A DNA stretch of 64,000 nt from Candidatus Pacearchaeota archaeon (GTDB lineage: Archaea > Nanobdellota > Nanobdellia > Pacearchaeales > GW2011-AR1), in contig JBAZYP010000001.1 of the NCBI GenBank assembly GCA_041659265.1, positions 192,817 through 256,816 of the forward strand, read 5' to 3'. The first letter of the stretch is position 1; every line of letters starts with the position of its first letter. Below are positions 7,744-53,497 of the stretch, piece after piece. A program made the translations under genes and the position numbers. Below the pieces are notes generated by a model. That model had not been told where the DNA came from and made no database searches. It saw only the letters and a list, made by a program, of their open reading frames with translations.

Positions 7744-10700
7744 ATGGTTGAAATTCCGATAATTAATATAGAAGTTCCTAAACCTGAGAATCTGGTTTGG
7801 GGAGAAAATTATTCTGAAAAGAAAGATAAGAATAAAATTTATAAAATTTTAGCTTATCTAGCAGTTATAGCTGCATTAATCATATTCTTTAGATTTGCAT
7901 TACTTGCTTATTTGTATATTGCTAATTTACCAAAAATAAATAGTTACGATGCAAATATAGAAAGGATTGCATTAACTGATGATGGAAAACAAGCTTTTAT
8001 TAAATTAACGGGTGGAAATCAAAAAGAGATTGAATCTATTAAATTTATATTTAGGACAAATGAATCAGAATATATTTATGAAACTAAAGATGGAATAAAA
8101 GAAATAACCTATGAAGATAAACGTCTCTTAAGTTATTTTGCTCATCCGGAATATGAAGGAAGTTATGATTATACAATTAAAGCTTTAGATGTTGGACTTG
8201 ATAGTTTTAAGAGAATAATAAAAGTTGAAGTTTTGATAAAATATAAAGATGAAAAAAGTGGAGAGATAAAAGAAACAAAGATTGTTGATAGTACAAAAAA
8301 ATCAGATATTAATGTTGTAAGAAGTGGTGGATATGGTGGAGGAGGTGGAGGATCTGGTGGTAGTGGAGGATCTGGAGGAACAAGTGGAAATGAACCTATT
8401 ACAACATGCAATCCAACTAAAACTTGTTTAAATTATGCTAATCTGTGCGGATCTAGAATGAGTGATGGATGTAATAATATTTTAGATTGTTCTGCTAATT
8501 GCAAATCTGGAGAAAAATGTTTAAGTGGTTCTTGTGTATCGAATGAAATTGAACTTCCTGAAACTTTTGAAGTTCCATATATATTACCTGCTGGTGGAAA
8601 AACCTGGTATATTAATGATAGTGGAAATATTAATACCAATGGAGTTAATTTTCAGAATGCTCTTGTTAATGCAAGTTTAGGTGATGTAATTGTTTTACAA
8701 GCAGGTGTAACTTATTATGGGAATTTTAGGTTACCAAATAAAACTGGAAATGGTTGGTTATATATTATTTCTTCGGAACTAGGAAACTTGCAAGAAGGAA
8801 ATAGGGTAGATTCAAAGGATTCTATTCATATGCCTAAAATTAGTGCATATCCTGATGGAACAAATTGTTATACTGCAATGATAAATGAATGGGGAGCCCA
8901 TAATTATAGGTTTTCAGGAATTGAATTTGTAACAGATGGATGTGTATATAATTTAATTTTACTTGGATATCATTATTTTAGGTTAAATGAACCTATTTGG
9001 AATATTACTGGACCGGGTCATGTTGCTGATACAATTGAAAAATTGCCTTATAATATTACTTTTGATAGATGTTATTTGCATTCTACAAATGAAAGCGCAA
9101 AATCAAGAACGGGTATAATGCTTGATGGTAGATATATGGCTGTTATTGATTCCTATTTGTCAAATTTTAAGGATAGAAGTGATTCTCAAGCAATAAATGT
9201 TTATAGTGGTCCTGGACCTTATAAAATTGTCAATAATTATCTAGAATCAACTGGTGAAAATTTTATGTCTGGTGGAACTGATCCAAACATTTTAAATTCT
9301 GTTCCATCTGATTTTGAAATTATTGGAAATTATTTTTATAAGCCGGATAAATGGAATTCGAATAGTCCTGAATATAAAAACATAAGCTGGTGTATTAAAA
9401 ATTTGTTTGAACTTAAAAATGCACAAAGATTAATTGTTTCAGGAAATATATTTGAAAATAATTGGGGAATTTGTGGTGGACAAAGAGCAACTGCAATTGT
9501 AATAACTCCTAGAAATCAAAATGGCATGGCAAATTGGTCAGTTGTTCAAGATTTAATTTTTACAAATAATATAATTAGAAATTTTGGTTATGCTATGCGA
9601 GTTTTAAGTAATGATGATCTTCATAAATCTGAAATTACAAAAAGAATTGAAATAAATAATAATATTTTTGATGTTATTAATCATAATTATTATACTGGAT
9701 ATGGAATTGGATTTTCTTCTCCTTATAATAATACTCCATCTTATAATGTAGTTGTAAAAAATAATATATTTTTACATAATTATACTGGTGGAAGTTTTAT
9801 GTATGTTGGATTTGATCCATTAAAAATTACTCATTATTCGGTTCTTGATAATTTTACATATGAAAATAATATTGCAACACATGCAAATTATGGATTATTT
9901 GGAGATAATATTGGTACTGGAAATGATGCGATAAATCATTATGTTGATAATTATATTTTTAGAAGAAATTTATTAATTAATCGTCCAATTGATAGAACTT
10001 ATTCTTATTGGATAACGCATTTCTCAAGTTCATATCCTCCTGATAATTTAATGGTTCATAATATAAGTGAGGTAGGTTTTATGGATTATAATAATCAAAA
10101 TTATAGGCTTTTATCAATAAGCCCTGGAAAAAATAATGGAACTGATGGGAAAGATATTGGACCTAATTATGATACCATTGATGAAGCAACAAGATGCACA
10201 CTTGATGGTCAGTGTTATATGCAATGTTTTCCTAATTGTTCGGGAAAGGCTTGTGGTAATGATGGATGTAGTGGAAGTTGTGGAGTATGCAATAATGGAG
10301 AAAGTTGTATAGATTATAATTGTGAAATAAATTCTAGTAATTCAGATAAGATATGGTTTTTCGATTCATTCGAAGGAATGCTTCCAAAGGCTTGGAATTC
10401 TTCTATATGGGGTGAAGCATGGGACAATGATTCGGTTATCAATGTAAATAGTGAAATAGATTCATTAGGAAATTCTATAGGTGCTGCACTTAGCGGGGGA
10501 AATCAATCTTATAGGCAATGGTGGAATGGGCAAAATGATATTGGTAGTTGGTCAACTGCTGGCGGATTATATTCAGATTTTTCAAGAATTACTCAAATGC
10601 CTGATAAACTTGGAGAAAATGATACATTTTATTTAAGTTATCATATTAAATATGATCCTCAATTTTTTTGGGGAGATACAACCGGGTTAAAACAGATTAT

Positions 10701-42452: not shown

Positions 42453-43196
42453 TTGATATCGAATATAAAATCCATTAAAATGATAGTTAAAAAACAGAAT
42501 AGCGTAGTAGATAAACAGGATACACAGAAAGATTTAATTCAACCAAATCAGATTTTGTTTAAACTTCCTGCATATGGGCCTGCTGATTATTATGCTTTAG
42601 GTCAGCAGATATTATCAGATGAATTAATTCTTCCAAGTGGTGAAGAAATTGCGAAACTTGTCCATAAATCTTATTGTATCAAAGAGTCATTAAATGAACC
42701 TGCATTTGAATATATTAGAACAGTTTTAAATGAATCACCTATTTCTATTTTTAATATTAATTATTGGACTGATATGGGGGTTTTTGTTTTTCCTGATATT
42801 AAAGTAGAGGGAATATATAAGAATGTTAAACAAAAAGAACTTGAAAAAATTTTGGAAAATGGAATTGAGATAAATAATGTTTTGTTCAGCAAGAATAGTA
42901 AATTTAGATTTGCTCCAAAGTGGAGCTATTATCTTGGAGAGCAGAATCATGAAAGTATAATTAATGATGGATATTTTATTGCTCAATTTGGAATTGAAGG
43001 TGCTAGAAGATTAAGCGAATTAGTTAAAATAACTGGAAAAAAACCTATTTCTTATGGATTTGATATTGAAGAAGGAAATCAACCAAAATTAAGGGTTTCA
43101 TTATTAGAAATTGAAAATGATAAAATTCATTTTGTTGGAAATAATGAATTTGGTTCTATACGTGGAAGAACTTTTGGAATTCAAGGGTATTTGTAA
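42453..43196 (+). CDS. Hypothetical protein
   Basis: A 247-aa ORF listed with a TTG start. An in-frame ATG (MIVKKQN) lies 27 nt downstream. Confidence 0.4.
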   Translation: MISNIKSIKMIVKKQNSVVDKQDTQKDLIQPNQILFKLPAYGPADYYALGQQILSDELILPSGEEIAKLVHKSYCIKESLNEPAFEYIRTVLNESPISIFNINYWTDMGVFVFPDIKVEGIYKNVKQKELEKILENGIEINNVLFSKNSKFRFAPKWSYYLGEQNHESIINDGYFIAQFGIEGARRLSELVKITGKKPISYGFDIEEGNQPKLRVSLLEIENDKIHFVGNNEFGSIRGRTFGIQGYL

Positions 43197-43267: not shown

Positions 43268-43340
43268 AGCCCCATAGTATAGTGGTCAAGTATACGAGGT
43301 TCTGGACCTTGTGACCCAGGTTCGAATCCTGGTGGGGCTA
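43268..43340 (+). tRNA. tRNA-Gln (anticodon CUG)
   Basis: Hand-folded cloverleaf: acceptor AGCCCCA/TGGGGCT, D arm GTAT-AGTGGTCAA-GTAT, anticodon arm CGAGG-TTCTGGA-CCTTG, T arm CCAGG-TTCGAAT-CCTGG, discriminator A. No CCA is encoded. Confidence 0.85.
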
Positions 43341-43350
43341 TAAACAAATC

Positions 43351-43369
43351 AAAATCCATTTTGGATTTT
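43351..43369 (+). terminator. Hairpin with T-run after tRNA-Gln
   Basis: AAAATCCA-TTT-TGGATTTT, a perfect 8-bp stem 11 nt after the tRNA 3' end. Confidence 0.35.
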
Positions 43370-43486
43370 GAGATGTTACGAATATCCTGGATGAGAACCG
43401 TAGGTATCGAATCCCGAGCATCTTTCACCTTGACAAAATATTTTTTTAATTAACAAGATGGGAGTGCGAGTTGGCGGACGCTATAA

Positions 43487-43522
43487 ATTAATTAAATTTG
43501 AGAAAGCAAATTTAGATTAATA
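43487..43522 (+). repeat. 36-nt direct repeat, copy A
   Basis: ATTAATTAAATTTGAGAAAGCAAATTTAGATTAATA is identical to 43635-43670. It can fold internally (TAAATTT/AAATTTA). Confidence 0.8.
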
Positions 43523-43634
43523 TCATAAACTCAGGAATTCGAAACTGGGGAACCCGGGGCGAATCCCGAGTAAAAGGACTTTTAGTAATTTAAATTAAAA
43601 TAAGAAAGCACTTTTAGGAGCTAGTGGGGCTATT

Positions 43635-43670
43635 ATTAATTAAATTTGAGAAAGCAAATTTAGATTAATA
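43635..43670 (+). repeat. 36-nt direct repeat, copy B
   Basis: Identical to 43487-43522. It is preceded by GTGGGGCTA, which equals the 3' end of tRNA-Gln. Confidence 0.8.
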
Positions 43671-43704
43671 CTTTAATTTAGCTTAATACTATTTTTTAGA
43701 GATT

Positions 43705-43720
43705 CGAAAGGTTTTTTATC
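43705..43720 (+). promoter_or_regulatory. BRE/TATA-like box (CGAAAGGTTTTTTATC)
   Basis: Same pattern as 23206-23223. It is centred about 28 nt before the TTG start at 43744, so the transcript may be leaderless. Confidence 0.4.
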
Positions 43721-45182: not shown

Positions 45183-45434
45183 ATGGAAGGGAAATTAATT
45201 GGTAGAGTCTTTAATTATTTTGAACATATTTCTGTAGCTGCTATAACTTTATCTGGACCATTAAAGTTAGGAGATACAATTCGAATTGTTGGAGGGGATA
45301 AAGATTTTACAGAAGTTATAGATAATATTCAAATTAATAAAGATAAAGTTAGTTCTGCGAAAGCTGGGGATAAAGTTGGTGTAAAAGTAAGCGAGAAAGT
45401 ATGTAGTGGATATAAGGTTTATAAAGTGGTTTAA
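45183..45434 (+). CDS. Small beta-barrel protein resembling EF-Tu domain 2
   Basis: 'GRVFNYFEHISVAAITLSGPLKLGDTIRIVG......AKAGDKVGVKV'. The call is from memory only. Confidence 0.4.
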   Translation: MEGKLIGRVFNYFEHISVAAITLSGPLKLGDTIRIVGGDKDFTEVIDNIQINKDKVSSAKAGDKVGVKVSEKVCSGYKVYKVV

Positions 45435-46362: not shown

Positions 46363-46387
46363 GCCCCTGTAGTGTAGTGGCCAAGAA
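46363..46387 (+). pseudogene. Orphan tRNA 5' fragment (acceptor 5' strand plus D arm)
   Basis: GCCCCTGTAGTGTAGTGGCCAAGAA matches the first 24 nt of tRNA-Glu at 47321 at 20 positions, with 3 mismatches and 1 indel. No anticodon or T arm follows. Confidence 0.6.
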
Positions 46388-46390
46388 AAG

Positions 46391-46400
46391 ATTTAAATAA
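46391..46400 (+). promoter_or_regulatory. TATA-like box for the LAGLIDADG gene
   Basis: ATTTAAATAA lies 21-30 nt before the ATG at 46421. Confidence 0.4.
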
Positions 46401-46420
46401 TTCTTTAAGTAAGTAATTAA

Positions 46421-47335
46421 ATGAAAATTAAGTTAAAAAAAGGTAAACAAAGAGAATTAATTCTTTTAGCTAAAAATGATAAAAACTGGAAAGAATTTGC
46501 AAAGTTAGTTAATATTTCTGAAAAATATTTATGTAACGATTTAAAGAATGAAAAAATATTAATTTCAGAAATGCTATATTTGAATCTTTGTAAAATTTCA
46601 AATAAAAATTTTGATGAATTTATTATTGAAAGATTAGATAATAATTGGGGAAAATCAAAAGGAGGAAAAATCTCTAGAGGAAATACTAAAGATTTTAAAG
46701 AGCCAAAAGAGTCTTTAGAATTAGCTGAATTAATAGGAATAATTCTTGGCGATGGTCATGTTGAAAAATTAAAGATCGGTTCAAAAATAAGATGTTATTC
46801 CATTGTTGTTACTGGTGATTCTAGACATGATAAAAAGTATTTAATAAAATATGTTAATAATCTATTTAAAAAATTATTTAATGAAAATGGGAGAATTCTT
46901 TATTCTAAGGATAAAAATAGCATCTATATTAAATTACATGGTAAGAAAATTGTAGATTTTATAGAAAGTAAAGGTGTTTTTGGAGGTAATAAAAAAAGAA
47001 ATAATCAGGGTATACCTAAATGGATTCTTATAAATGATTCTTATTTAAAAGCAACTTTACGTGGTTTAATTGATACTGATGGATGTATATATTATATTTC
47101 TAAAAATAATAGAAATTTAAGAATATCGTTTACGAGTTATATTCCTAATTTAATGAATGATGTAAGAAATTCATTTTTAAAATTAGGTTTTAATCCTTCT
47201 GAAATTATAAGATGTAAAGATATAACCATTAGTAGAAAAGAAGATATTAAAAAATACTTGAAAGAAATCGGTTTTTCAAATGATAAACATTTAAAAAGAT
47301 ATCAAAATTTAGTTCAATATGCCCCTATCGTCTAG
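46421..47335 (+). CDS. Free-standing double-motif LAGLIDADG homing endonuclease
   Basis: Motifs 'LAELIGIILGDGHV' and 'LRGLIDTDGCIY'. The last four codons (APIV) and the TAG stop lie inside tRNA-Glu. Confidence 0.85.
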   Translation: MKIKLKKGKQRELILLAKNDKNWKEFAKLVNISEKYLCNDLKNEKILISEMLYLNLCKISNKNFDEFIIERLDNNWGKSKGGKISRGNTKDFKEPKESLELAELIGIILGDGHVEKLKIGSKIRCYSIVVTGDSRHDKKYLIKYVNNLFKKLFNENGRILYSKDKNSIYIKLHGKKIVDFIESKGVFGGNKKRNNQGIPKWILINDSYLKATLRGLIDTDGCIYYISKNNRNLRISFTSYIPNLMNDVRNSFLKLGFNPSEIIRCKDITISRKEDIKKYLKEIGFSNDKHLKRYQNLVQYAPIV

Positions 47336-47394
47336 CTGGCCAAGGATTTAGCCTTCTCAAGGCTGCGACCCGGGTTCGAATCCCGGTGGGGGCA
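47321..47394 (+). tRNA. tRNA-Glu (anticodon CUC)
   Basis: Hand fold: acceptor GCCCCTA/TGGGGGC, D stem GTCT/GGAT (two G-U pairs), anticodon arm TAGCC-TTCTCAA-GGCTG, T arm CCGGG-TTCGAAT-CCCGG, discriminator A. Confidence 0.85.
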
Positions 47395-53283: not shown

Positions 53284-53424
53284 AAAAAGCCAATAATAAT
53301 TTGATTTATAAATATTTTTATTGAAAGACTTAAACTAAGGACTATTAAAATGGGACATATAGTTCAAGCCAGAAGTCTTACTCGACTGTGTCTTTCATTA
53401 TAAGGCTTTATAATGAATTAAGAA

Positions 53425-53497
53425 AGCCACAGTCGAGGATCGAACTCGAGACCTTTACATTACCAATGTAACGCTCTACCAACTGAGCTACTGCGGC
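53425..53497 (-). tRNA. tRNA-Thr (anticodon GGU)
   Basis: Reverse-complement fold: acceptor GCCGCAG/CTGTGGC, D arm GCTC-AGTTGGTA-GAGC, anticodon arm TTACA-TTGGTAA-TGTAA, T arm TCGAG-TTCGATC-CTCGA, discriminator T. Confidence 0.85.

Follow-up and report, generated by a model that had tools for sequence, protein, structure and literature searches.

Behind the intact tRNA-Gln(CUG) gene of a Candidatus Pacearchaeota archaeon, two islands of sequence form two stacked gene-less hairpin cassettes, each with a spare copy of the tRNA tail, a reading to which we assign a probability of roughly 0.6. They lie in the window, the 64,000-nucleotide stretch of DNA analysed here, and each cassette repeats the 3' part of a tRNA-Gln gene, including the last 11–12 nt of the tRNA. 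Cassettes are present behind a third to half of the tRNA genes in this archaeon. The intact upstream tRNA-Gln does the work, and the cassettes are not needed for making any tRNA; they look like an undescribed tRNA-targeting element, not like pieces of a split tRNA.

The tRNA-Gln(CUG) gene that hosts the cassettes (43268..43340, + strand) was detected by ARAGORN and matches the full Rfam model RF00005 with 62.6 bits. A spacer hairpin adjoins its 3' end (43343..43377, +; AACAAATCAAAATCCA / TGGATTTTGAGATGTT, inverted repeat I6), with 16-nt arms that are 88% complementary and a fold energy of -14.4 kcal/mol; locus-specific hairpins occupy the position right after the gene at other tRNA genes, too. 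The 5' part of cassette 1 (43380..43414, +), delimited by sequence and fold, includes GAACC-GTA-GGTATC, a small hairpin composed of an inverted and a direct T-loop-like copy, and ends with the T-loop-like segment GGTATCGAATCC (43403–43414, +). A GAACC-N3-5-GGTnTCRAATCC segment is also found in the congeners G047, G013, G001, and G007, where its sequence tracks the T-loop variant of the host. The hairpin module of cassette 1 belongs to family B (43415..43471, +) and consists of CGAG, a 48-nt AU-rich hairpin, and CGAGT, as recognized from homologous copies and folds. Family B homologues are located at C5:85327-85400 of the same genome (77% identity), behind tRNA-Gln(CUG) in G007, and behind tRNA-Gln(UUG) in the genus g57. 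Tail copy 1, TGGCGGACGCTA (43472..43483, +), was placed by its position after CGAGT and is a degenerate copy of the 3' strands of T-stem and acceptor plus the discriminator of tRNA-Gln (TGGTGGGGCTA), differing from the tRNA end by one substitution plus a G to AC change. The same slot after CGAGT in G047, G007, and G005 holds an exact copy of the host tRNA end. The first copy of a 36-mer follows (43487..43522, +; perfect repeat D3), a tRNA-Gln-type trailer hairpin of the form AAATTTG-loop-CAAATTT, and hairpins resembling it stand after tRNA-Gln(UUG) in G013 and G003 and after the cassette on C9 of this genome.

Cassette 2 opens with a 5' part (43530..43566, +) containing an inverted T-arm copy CTCAGGAATTCGAAAC, a small hairpin CTGGGGAACCCGG, and a T-loop-like segment GGGGCGAATCC. 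Positions 43537–43549 of this part are 92% complementary to 43315–43327 of the tRNA (inverted repeat I12), and a direct repeat (D6) has 73% identity to the tRNA T arm; the 5' part is kept in G013:C155 with compensatory stem changes. The module is of family A, with CGAG, TAAAAGGACTTTTAGTAA...AAGAAAGCACTTTTA, and GGAGC (43567..43621, +), and is the top match of the covariance model R1 at 72.5 bits. It is followed by tail copy 2, TAGTGGGGCTA (43622..43632, +; direct repeat D4), which is the tRNA-Gln 3' end with one mismatch, and by the second copy of the 36-mer (43635..43670, +; perfect repeat D3, fold), a trailer hairpin duplicated along with the tail copy. The first-pass annotation had noted much of this framework, and its observations hold: CGAATCCCGAG is present at both 43408–43418 and 43560–43570, the two 36-mers are identical and fold into a hairpin with 13 bp, and GTGGGGCTA at 43624–43632 is identical to the last 9 nt of tRNA-Gln. 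It had also been unable to assemble a cloverleaf from the pieces, in agreement with ARAGORN (with intron search) and Rfam (E up to 10), which found no tRNA at 43341–43700.

The cassettes have a common order of T-loop-like segment, CGAG, hairpin module of ~47 nt, CGAG or GGAG, tRNA 3' end copy, and trailer hairpin (the 36-mer here), usually with an inverted T-loop copy ahead. In each unit, a hairpin module that is common to several loci breaks up a T-arm copy derived from the host; the AU-rich module splits each 3'-part copy at the T-loop/T-stem border, and its CGAG...CGAG closure pairs as C-G, tandem G.A/A.G, and G-C. On its left side, the repeat has a fixed edge at this border, while its length varies between 11 and about 65 nt; with one and the same module family, it measures 11–36 nt and, at Lys-CUU, about 65 nt. 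Across more than 25 loci in two genomes, the units have a uniform size of about 90–150 nt and are free of cargo. Every cassette examined has an intact contiguous tRNA upstream. At the tRNA-Gln(CUG) locus, the cassette nearer the tRNA has the more degenerate tail, and the 36-mers are identical though the tails differ, so simple successive insertion with neutral decay fails as an account of the array.

The recurrence of tRNA tails was assessed by seeking the last 13 nt of each tRNA 30–280 nt downstream, with a cut-off of ≤2 mismatches. For tRNA-Gln(CUG), these 13 nt recur downstream at +279 with one mismatch, and the best upstream match has five. Across the genome (G000), 11/35 tRNA genes have a downstream copy of their own tail and 0/35 an upstream one, so the recurrence exceeds chance. 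With ≤3 mismatches allowed, the count rises to 15/35, and at least 18/35 tRNA genes are affected when tail copies and modules are counted together, with module detection adding Tyr, Trp, and Lys-CUU. In the congener G003, tail copies stand behind 9 of the 32 tRNA genes, partly of other tRNAs than in G000, and six tRNAs have a cassette in G000 and none in G003. At the syntenic tRNA-Gln(CUG) site, G015 has a cassette, and G002 and G018 have none; the spacer between tRNA-Gln(UUG) and rps15 contains different module families in G000, G047, G033, G005, and G010. Tail copies decay to 3–5 mismatches at some loci, and at Arg-CCU, one degenerate tail is common to G000 and G003. No end duplication was detected at the 5S rRNA, RNase P RNA, or SRP RNA genes of this genome. 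A search of metagenome contigs for strain variants returned a single contig, 100% identical to the window; no insertion event was seen at the strain level.

The tail copy tracks the host tRNA. It reads TGGAGGGGCTA in G007, TGGCAGGGCTA in G005, and TCTTGGCGGGGCTA in G015, TGTCCCGGGCG behind tRNA-Arg in G036, and TATCCCCTGCA behind tRNA-Leu in G013. The T-loop copy usually tracks the host as well, with a mean best mismatch of 1.65 to the T segment of the own tRNA versus 2.93 to those of other tRNAs (26 cassettes). The hairpin modules, by comparison, sort into families common to several tRNA loci. Island 2 aligns at 79% with an element right behind tRNA-Gln(CUG) in G013, where the flanks are not alignable, and many congeners have relatives of it behind genes for tRNA-Gln, Leu, Arg, Gly, and Tyr; module A has matches in 22 of the 48 other genomes of the genus. 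The module A hairpin shows covariation, with 88% of cells paired and 7 of the 15 pairs changed on both sides, a level reached by 0/500 shuffles, and its closing pair alternates between C-G and U-A. In family D, Gly-UCC and Gln-UUG of G003 are followed by an identical first hairpin, and all significant matches in the own genome (12/12) lie behind tRNA genes. Modules are inverted at Ile-GAU and Lys-CUU, and the interior is inverted in G059.

Several other explanations were weighed against these data. Fragmented or split tRNA parts, one of the options raised in the first-pass annotation, would be halves of split or permuted genes that are put together in trans, the arrangement of Nanoarchaeum and Caldivirga. 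The pieces do hold T-loop-like and acceptor 3'-strand sequence, but such an origin is next to impossible: both tRNA-Gln isoacceptors are contiguous and intact, including tRNA-Gln(UUG) at C9:30603-30677, the gene suspected of being missing; no 5' half, complementary leader or trailer, or bulge-helix-bulge motif was found; the T arms of the pieces are unable to pair as T arms; and such cassettes stand behind many tRNAs that are complete on their own. When tRNA-Ser 5' fragments were considered as split halves, the partner search matched 23S rRNA only. In archaea, the bulge-helix-bulge motif consists of two 3-nt bulges around a 4-bp helix at the exon-intron borders. It is very unlikely that a cassette is an intron of this sort at the T-loop/T-stem border with a duplicated 3' exon, the tRNA being made either directly or by splicing position ~60–62 to the tail copy. 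A systematic scan yielded no complete motif, with cassettes reaching at best 3/4 central pairs and no inner helix, whereas the positive controls (the own Arg-GCG, Gly-UCC, and Arg-UCU introns) have 4/4 central pairs and both flanking helices. The left edge of the repeat at the T-loop/T-stem border would suit an intron, as would the UUGA-GGN end of family-D modules, which can pair 3/4 with the T-loop UUCA, and the 13-mer TTTTAGTAATTTA, which recurs in the canonical intron of the own tRNA-Arg(GCG). In G034, moreover, a tRNA-Ser(GGA) gene that is otherwise complete has module A in its body, where the D stem and the anticodon stem adjoin; removal of the module restores the tRNA-Ser call, and intron-free orthologues exist in G018 and G008. 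However, no register in this gene combines a bulge-helix-bulge motif with a correct D/anticodon junction (inspected by hand), and the gene may be dying because tRNA-Ser(GGA) is absent from many congeners. Inverted modules and variable repeat length also fit an intron poorly, and splicing-out is not needed with an intact contiguous tRNA upstream of each cassette examined.

The cassettes could alternatively be functional small RNAs or cis-acting RNA elements, involved for example in processing of the tRNA 3' end, in termination, or in regulation; the first-pass annotation had likewise raised small RNAs with a common terminator module. Their transcription would accompany or follow that of the tRNA, the hairpins would bind proteins, and the tail would provide a tRNA-specific recognition sequence. 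This role is quite unlikely, since the presence of cassettes differs among congeners at orthologous tRNAs, the tails degrade, module families are swapped at one locus, and some modules run opposite to the tRNA. What speaks for it is structural: the compensatory changes and alternating closing pair of hairpin A, the tandem G.A closure CGAG/CGAG kept across sequence-unrelated module families, and a three-way-junction fold that recurs even where the flanks are not tRNA-like, together with the host tracking of the tail and the conservation of island 2 between unalignable flanks. Rfam has no match for the cassettes; Rfam 15 matched only the tRNA itself on the locus, with all other hits far below threshold. 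The hammerhead ribozyme core is CUGANGA...GAA with C3, A14, and an A15.1-U16.1 pair. UGAUGAG occurs in some cassette copies (window 43389–43395, G007, and the third copy in G047), but with G or A in place of C3 and C in place of A14, and GGAAUUC replaces it in many copies. Judged by hand, the hammerhead and C/D-box sRNA readings of UGAUGAG both fail on core nucleotides, and the motif is not general. For a K-turn at CGAG/CGAG, the tandem G.A alone is supported, and there is no consistent 3-nt bulge or C stem.

Repeated integration and excision at tRNA-Gln, also proposed in the first-pass annotation, comes closest of its options: the units are stacked, and each ends in a target-derived tRNA 3' end copy. 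They are not, however, the remains of ordinary large elements, being uniform (~100–150 nt), gene-less, and spread behind many tRNA genes. It is quite improbable that the cassettes are ordinary attR-type scars, left by integrase-borne elements (viruses, plasmids, islands) that entered the tRNA 3' end and were later nearly deleted. A direct repeat of the tRNA 3' end behind an intact tRNA is the classical signature of such scars (PMC9897764; PMC3293823) and is found here, with 0–3 mismatches, at the 15/35 own tRNAs counted above; the genome also encodes four tyrosine recombinases. In addition, an Arg-type stump with module B is located on C5, 16.6 kb downstream of tRNA-Arg(CCU), and the interval contains a type I restriction-modification system, RadC, and a PD-(D/E)XK nuclease. 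This interval nevertheless has no integrase or recombinase. Between the repeats behind tRNA genes, there are only non-coding hairpins, with neither integrase nor cargo, and the repeats vary in length without a fixed core. The interior T-arm copies are host-specific, a feature that an incoming element would lack, and no related sequence was found in viral contigs, where module A gave only chance 17-mer matches in coding DNA and module D none.

We favor an origin of the cassettes at the DNA level, through module copying combined with target duplication from the T-loop/T-stem border. The inverted modules at some loci, the fixed left edge with variable length, and the decay of tails point to a DNA-level process. 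A hairpin module would be copied from one tRNA locus to another, and the target would be duplicated from a fixed point (tRNA position ~61–63) to a variable point in the trailer; with duplication in this trailer-ward direction, the intact tRNA would always survive upstream. The most likely route may be that the T-arm is nicked or broken at a specific site and that template switching at T-loop microhomology repairs the damage. A recombinase acting on folded hairpin DNA would be the alternative, and a classical integrase with a fixed core seems less likely. The own genome (88% complete) encodes, besides the tyrosine recombinases, a free-standing LAGLIDADG endonuclease, and any of these enzymes could be involved. 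Cas1 (PF01867), Y1 transposase (PF01797), TnpB (PF01385), and resolvase had no match in this 88% complete genome. The ORF at 42453–43196, upstream of the tRNA, was considered as an integrase fragment and has no Pfam match and no significant similarity to the recombinases of the genome. The compensatory hairpin changes and the conserved CGAG/CGAG closure suggest selection on structure, which could reflect an RNA function. A bolder proposal, which we regard as unlikely but conceivable, is that these modules belong to a novel class of mobile DNA, non-autonomous and homing to the T-arm of tRNA genes (occasionally to other hairpins), with a built-in target duplication that keeps the gene alive; inside a tRNA body, as in the tRNA-Ser(GGA) of G034, they would supply the material from which non-canonical archaeal tRNA introns arise.

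tRNA genes are classic landing sites of mobile elements, and the cassettes share traits with several known systems. Casposons and CRISPR spacers are integrated by Cas1, with target duplications of 14–15 bp at tRNA 3' ends and leader-proximal stacking. The cassette duplication likewise covers the tRNA 3' end, and tandem arrays grow at one site; unlike in Cas1 systems, its length is variable, no Cas1 was found in the genome, and there are no casposon-type terminal inverted repeats. Integron attC sites and Xer-exploiting elements, such as the forked hairpin of the CTX phage, recombine as folded single strands. They resemble the cassettes as gene-less or nearly gene-less hairpin units of 60–140 nt that are stacked at one attachment site and have a closing stem made of an inverted and a direct target copy; the cassettes, whose recombination is hypothetical, differ in having no integron integrase context and in host-specific stems at many tRNAs. 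MITEs and REP/BIME elements are also small, non-autonomous, multi-copy hairpin DNA of several families in either orientation. In contrast to these, the cassettes are strictly at tRNA 3' ends and have long target-derived duplications, their termini are not conserved between families except for CGAG, and no partner transposase was found. Non-canonical bulge-helix-bulge tRNA introns reportedly 'transpose' between tRNA genes in Thermoproteales, as Fujishima et al. are said to have described in 2010. Like the cassettes, these introns include short AU-rich hairpins common to different tRNA genes and use the T-arm position, and one cassette family also occurs inside a tRNA body, the tRNA-Ser of G034. 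Unlike them, the cassettes have no bulge-helix-bulge, and the module sits in a spare 3' copy and not in the working gene, so that splicing is unneeded. The attL/attR duplications of tRNA 3' ends made by tyrosine integrases (SSV-type, pNOB8-type, and genomic islands) have been reviewed (PMC9897764), and duplication of a tRNA 3' end is also documented in Caldiarchaeum (PMC3293823). There, as here, a direct repeat of the tRNA 3' end stands behind the intact gene, stacking is possible, and the target is the 3' part of a tRNA gene. The cassettes depart from this pattern in being gene-less, with no integrase and about 90–150 nt between repeats, in an interior formed by a host T-arm copy split by a hairpin module, in repeats whose left edge is constant and whose length varies between 11 and about 65 nt, and in the third to half of all tRNA genes that are affected.

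If mobile, the cassettes would represent a tRNA-targeting element without a known enzyme and would connect, in a testable way, the gain of introns with insertion at tRNA genes. Archaeal tRNA introns have been treated previously (PMC4090602; bioRxiv 10.64898/2026.10.13.758758), and their arrival is an open question (bioRxiv 10.64898/2026.10.13.758758); the homing of modules, if true, would provide a concrete route for this long-unexplained arrival. The setting is a small DPANN-like archaeon with miniature protein-less cassettes, which account for tRNA-like fragments that confuse tRNA annotation and can be used to mark loci with rapid turnover in reduced genomes.

The two GC-richer islands downstream of tRNA-Gln(CUG) (43268-43340) in the window, which has a G+C content of 26%, read as stacked, gene-less cassettes. 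All of the features that the first-pass annotation had listed at this locus were found in the sequence, including both copies of CGAATCCCGAG (43408-43418 and 43560-43570), the perfect 36-mer repeat (43487-43522 and 43635-43670), and GTGGGGCTA (43624-43632). Each CGAATCCCGAG is the end of a T-loop-like copy plus the CGAG opening a hairpin module, GTGGGGCTA is a portion of the second tail copy, a repeat of the host tRNA 3' end, and the 36-mer belongs to a trailer hairpin type (AAATTTG-loop-CAAATTT) present behind tRNA-Gln genes or cassettes in the congeners G013 and G003 and on contig C9 of the own genome (G000). ARAGORN and Rfam searches of region 43341-43700 detected neither a tRNA, intron-less or intron-bearing, nor any Rfam family. 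The own genome is 1.6 Mb long (completeness 88%) and its relatives measure 0.4-1.7 Mb, sizes that therefore indicate a DPANN-like archaeon.

Past the second 36-mer, two more pieces lie at 43671-43720: ACTTTAATTTAGCTTAATACTAT, with 74% identity to the promoter-proximal region and 5' end of tRNA-Gln, and AGAGATTCGAAAGG, an inverted T-loop-like orphan of the sort that opens cassettes in G001. Together they may be leftovers of a decayed third unit. A small EF-Tu-domain-2-like ORF, which directly follows tRNA-Gln(CUG) in G002, G018, and G015, is located at 45183-45434 in the window, where about 1.7 kb containing the cassettes, a 59-bp tandem repeat, a CPBP protease gene, and two small ORFs lies between it and the tRNA.

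Downstream of the intact tRNA, a unit comprises a locus-specific spacer hairpin, in many cases the T-loop region copied in inverted orientation, a direct T-loop-like copy (Gln, GGTnTCGAATCC; Arg and Leu, ...CAAATCC), a hairpin module between CGAG and CGAG(T), a copy of the host tRNA's end (the 3' strands of T stem and acceptor stem plus the discriminator), and often a trailer copy. The tail copy matches the species-specific acceptor variants of its host (TGGAGGGGCTA in G007, TGGCAGGGCTA in G005, TCTTGGCGGGGCTA in G015, TGTCCCGGGCG at tRNA-Arg, and TATCCCCTGCA at tRNA-Leu), and the internal T-like copy is also closer to the host, with a mean best mismatch of 1.65 versus 2.93 for other tRNAs across 26 cassettes. 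When tail copies were extended, the left edge of the duplication was constant where the 3' strand of the T stem begins (position ~61 in module family D, ~63 in families A and B), whereas the right edge varied from 0 to 23 nt into the trailer. The cleanest repeat-module-repeat case among those seen is tRNA-Lys(CUU) (G000:C1:152949-153290), with a direct repeat of ~65 nt, extending from the T loop through the whole trailer hairpin, around an inverted family-D module. Stumps devoid of a module occur at Ser-GCU in G000 and Met in G003. At tRNA-Thr(GGU) (window 53381-53497, minus strand), a direct tail copy is absent and the 3' end is copied in inverted orientation with 1 mismatch, 31 nt downstream, with a hairpin between; this arrangement may represent an "empty" form of the architecture.

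The modules belong to several families. In G013, the sequence immediately downstream of tRNA-Gln(CUG) shares 79% alignment identity with island 2, while the flanks are unalignable. The central ~55 nt of island 2 constitute module A (CGAG-yAAAAGGACTTTTAGTAA...AAGAAAGyACTTTTG-CGAG), present in 22 of the 48 other genus genomes, frequently in multiple copies per genome, 90-150 nt downstream of intact tRNA-Gln, Leu, Arg, Gly, and Tyr genes. The proposed 15-pair hairpin of module A is paired in 88% of cells over 23 distinct copies, with both-side changes in seven pairs; none of 500 shuffles reached the observed values, and pairing dropped to 43-59% in slid controls. The CGAG/CGAG closure pairs as C-G, tandem G.A/A.G, and G-C, with an outer pair alternating between C-G and U-A, and also encloses module B, module C, and the G005 type, which are unrelated in sequence. 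A covariance model of module A matched four of five sampled genus genomes and gave only weak matches in 3 of 100 further genomes from the family, so family A is young and essentially genus-specific. The hairpin of island 1 is a distinct module, B, with relatives at C5:85327-85400 of the own genome, downstream of tRNA-Gln(CUG) in G007, and, in another genus into which family B thus extends, downstream of tRNA-Gln(UUG). A third type, module C, is carried by the own tRNA-Gln(UUG) on C9. Family D is a two-hairpin module found in most cassette-bearing tRNA loci of G000; its first hairpin is identical at Gly-UCC and Gln-UUG of G003, the same module behind different tRNAs in one genome. At Ile-GAU and Lys-CUU, modules are inverted with respect to the tRNA, and one module A copy in G059 has an inverted loop within unchanged flanks.

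Searching the last 13 nt of every ARAGORN tRNA across 300 nt downstream recovered tail copies for 11 of 35 tRNAs in G000 at ≤2 mismatches and 15 of 35 at ≤3; the best upstream match of these 35 tRNAs never fell below 4 mismatches. The Tyr, Trp, and Lys-CUU cassettes escape this test and bring the total to at least 18 of 35. In G003, 9 of 32 tRNAs were positive at ≤2 mismatches and 13 of 32 at ≤3. Family D gave 12 significant matches in the own genome, every one of them downstream of a tRNA gene, and nothing comparable was found at its 5S rRNA, RNase P RNA, and SRP RNA genes. Two or more units stand in tandem at Ile-GAU, Ile-CAU, Met, and Arg-UCG in G000, and three in G047.

Occupancy differs between congeners. 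Asn, Gly-GCC, Gln-CUG, Ser-GCU, Lys-UUU, and Trp carry a cassette in G000 and none in G003, and Lys-CUU differs in form between the two. The tRNA-Gln(CUG) site beside the EF-Tu-domain-2-like gene is filled in G015 and empty in G002 and G018. The spacer between tRNA-Gln(UUG) and rps15 is occupied in G000 by module C, in G047 by three A units, in G033 by an A-like unit, in G005 by another hairpin, and in G010 by a D-like remnant without a tail. Some tail copies are perfect and others carry up to 3-5 mismatches, and a degenerate Arg-CCU tail common to G000 and G003 indicates that old cassettes persist and decay.

The first-pass annotation had considered split tRNA parts, integration and excision footprints at tRNA-Gln, and small RNAs sharing a terminator. 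The split tRNA reading is rejected, since both Gln isoacceptors are intact, including the tRNA-Gln(UUG) that such pieces might have supplied, and both a 5' half and a bulge-helix-bulge motif are absent. Classical integration scars fit poorly with units that are small and uniform in size, lack cargo, have a host-derived interior, and show repeats of varying length. The hairpin covariation keeps alive the possibility that the cassettes encode small RNAs of conserved function, against which stand their turnover between genomes, their decay, and the inverted copies. A reading as T-loop introns was not supported either: in a systematic scan, the tRNA-restoring registers had no complete bulge-helix-bulge, the best reaching three of four central pairs with the inner helix absent, while three canonical introns of the own genome, serving as positive controls, obtained the full score.

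Elsewhere in the own genome, 16.6 kb separate tRNA-Arg(CCU) from a second Arg-type stump that bears a family-B module (G000:C5:68671-85400). The interval encodes a type I restriction-modification system together with RadC and a PD-(D/E)XK nuclease, with no recombinase found in it, and may be an old genomic island.

The cassettes most likely arise by a DNA-level process aimed at the T arm, as suggested by the left junction fixed in the T arm and the variable right end of the duplication, the occurrence of modules in both orientations, the T-loop-like arms of the D hairpins (TTCAAAA...TTTTGAA), the inverted and direct T-loop copies at the junctions, and the absence of a dedicated enzyme. The border between T loop and T stem might be nicked or broken, with repair proceeding by template switches at T-loop microhomology, so that the target would be duplicated and a module copied in from a different tRNA locus; alternatively, a putative recombinase might act on folded hairpin DNA. 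Only events that keep the upstream tRNA intact would survive. Within the window, the tail nearer the tRNA is the more degenerate of the two although both 36-mers are identical, and the cassette mechanism leaves this unaccounted for. Cas1, Y1 transposase, TnpB, and a convincing resolvase were not found in the 88%-complete own genome, which encodes four tyrosine recombinases and three LAGLIDADG domains, and no related module was present in the viral contigs searched. One LAGLIDADG domain is a free-standing gene adjoining tRNA-Glu in the window; here (46363-47394), a tRNA-Glu 5' stump (AGCCCCTGTAGTGTAGTGGCCAAG) is followed by the LAGLIDADG ORF and an intact tRNA-Glu(CUC), with no hairpin module of families A-D. 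Separately, ~60 of the 89 tRNA hits in the whole G047 genome fall within 25 kb (G047:C1:47600-73000) and form a large tRNA gene array, which may stem from a virus or mobile element or represent contamination.

Module A also occurs inside tRNA-Ser genes or gene fragments. In G034 (locus L047, C36 ~10017-10148), it separates the D stem from the anticodon stem within a complete tRNA-Ser(GGA) gene; with the module removed, ARAGORN recognizes a tRNA-Ser, the orthologues in G018 and G008 are contiguous, and no bulge-helix-bulge register was found for the gene. A search of 49 genomes detected no tRNA-Ser(GGA) in 20 of them, the own genome included, so the G034 gene may simply be disrupted. A call of an intron-bearing tRNA-Phe(GAA) by ARAGORN outside the window (G000:C4:93225-93355) reads better as tRNA-Arg(GCG) with a canonical 55-nt intron, which has a perfect bulge-helix-bulge motif (UUGC / GG|U ... 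GCGA / AA|A) and shares the 13-mer TTTTAGTAATTTA with the module of island 2. Fragments of the tRNA-Ser(GCU) 5' part bearing module A were detected in G002, G046, and G059. At the G059 locus L048 (C48, minus strand, 1627-1490 and 1147-1050), two co-oriented tRNA-Ser(GCU)-like 5' fragments each carry a family-A module after the D arm, its interior inverted in one of them, and the first fragment has an additional family-D-like insert after the acceptor strand.
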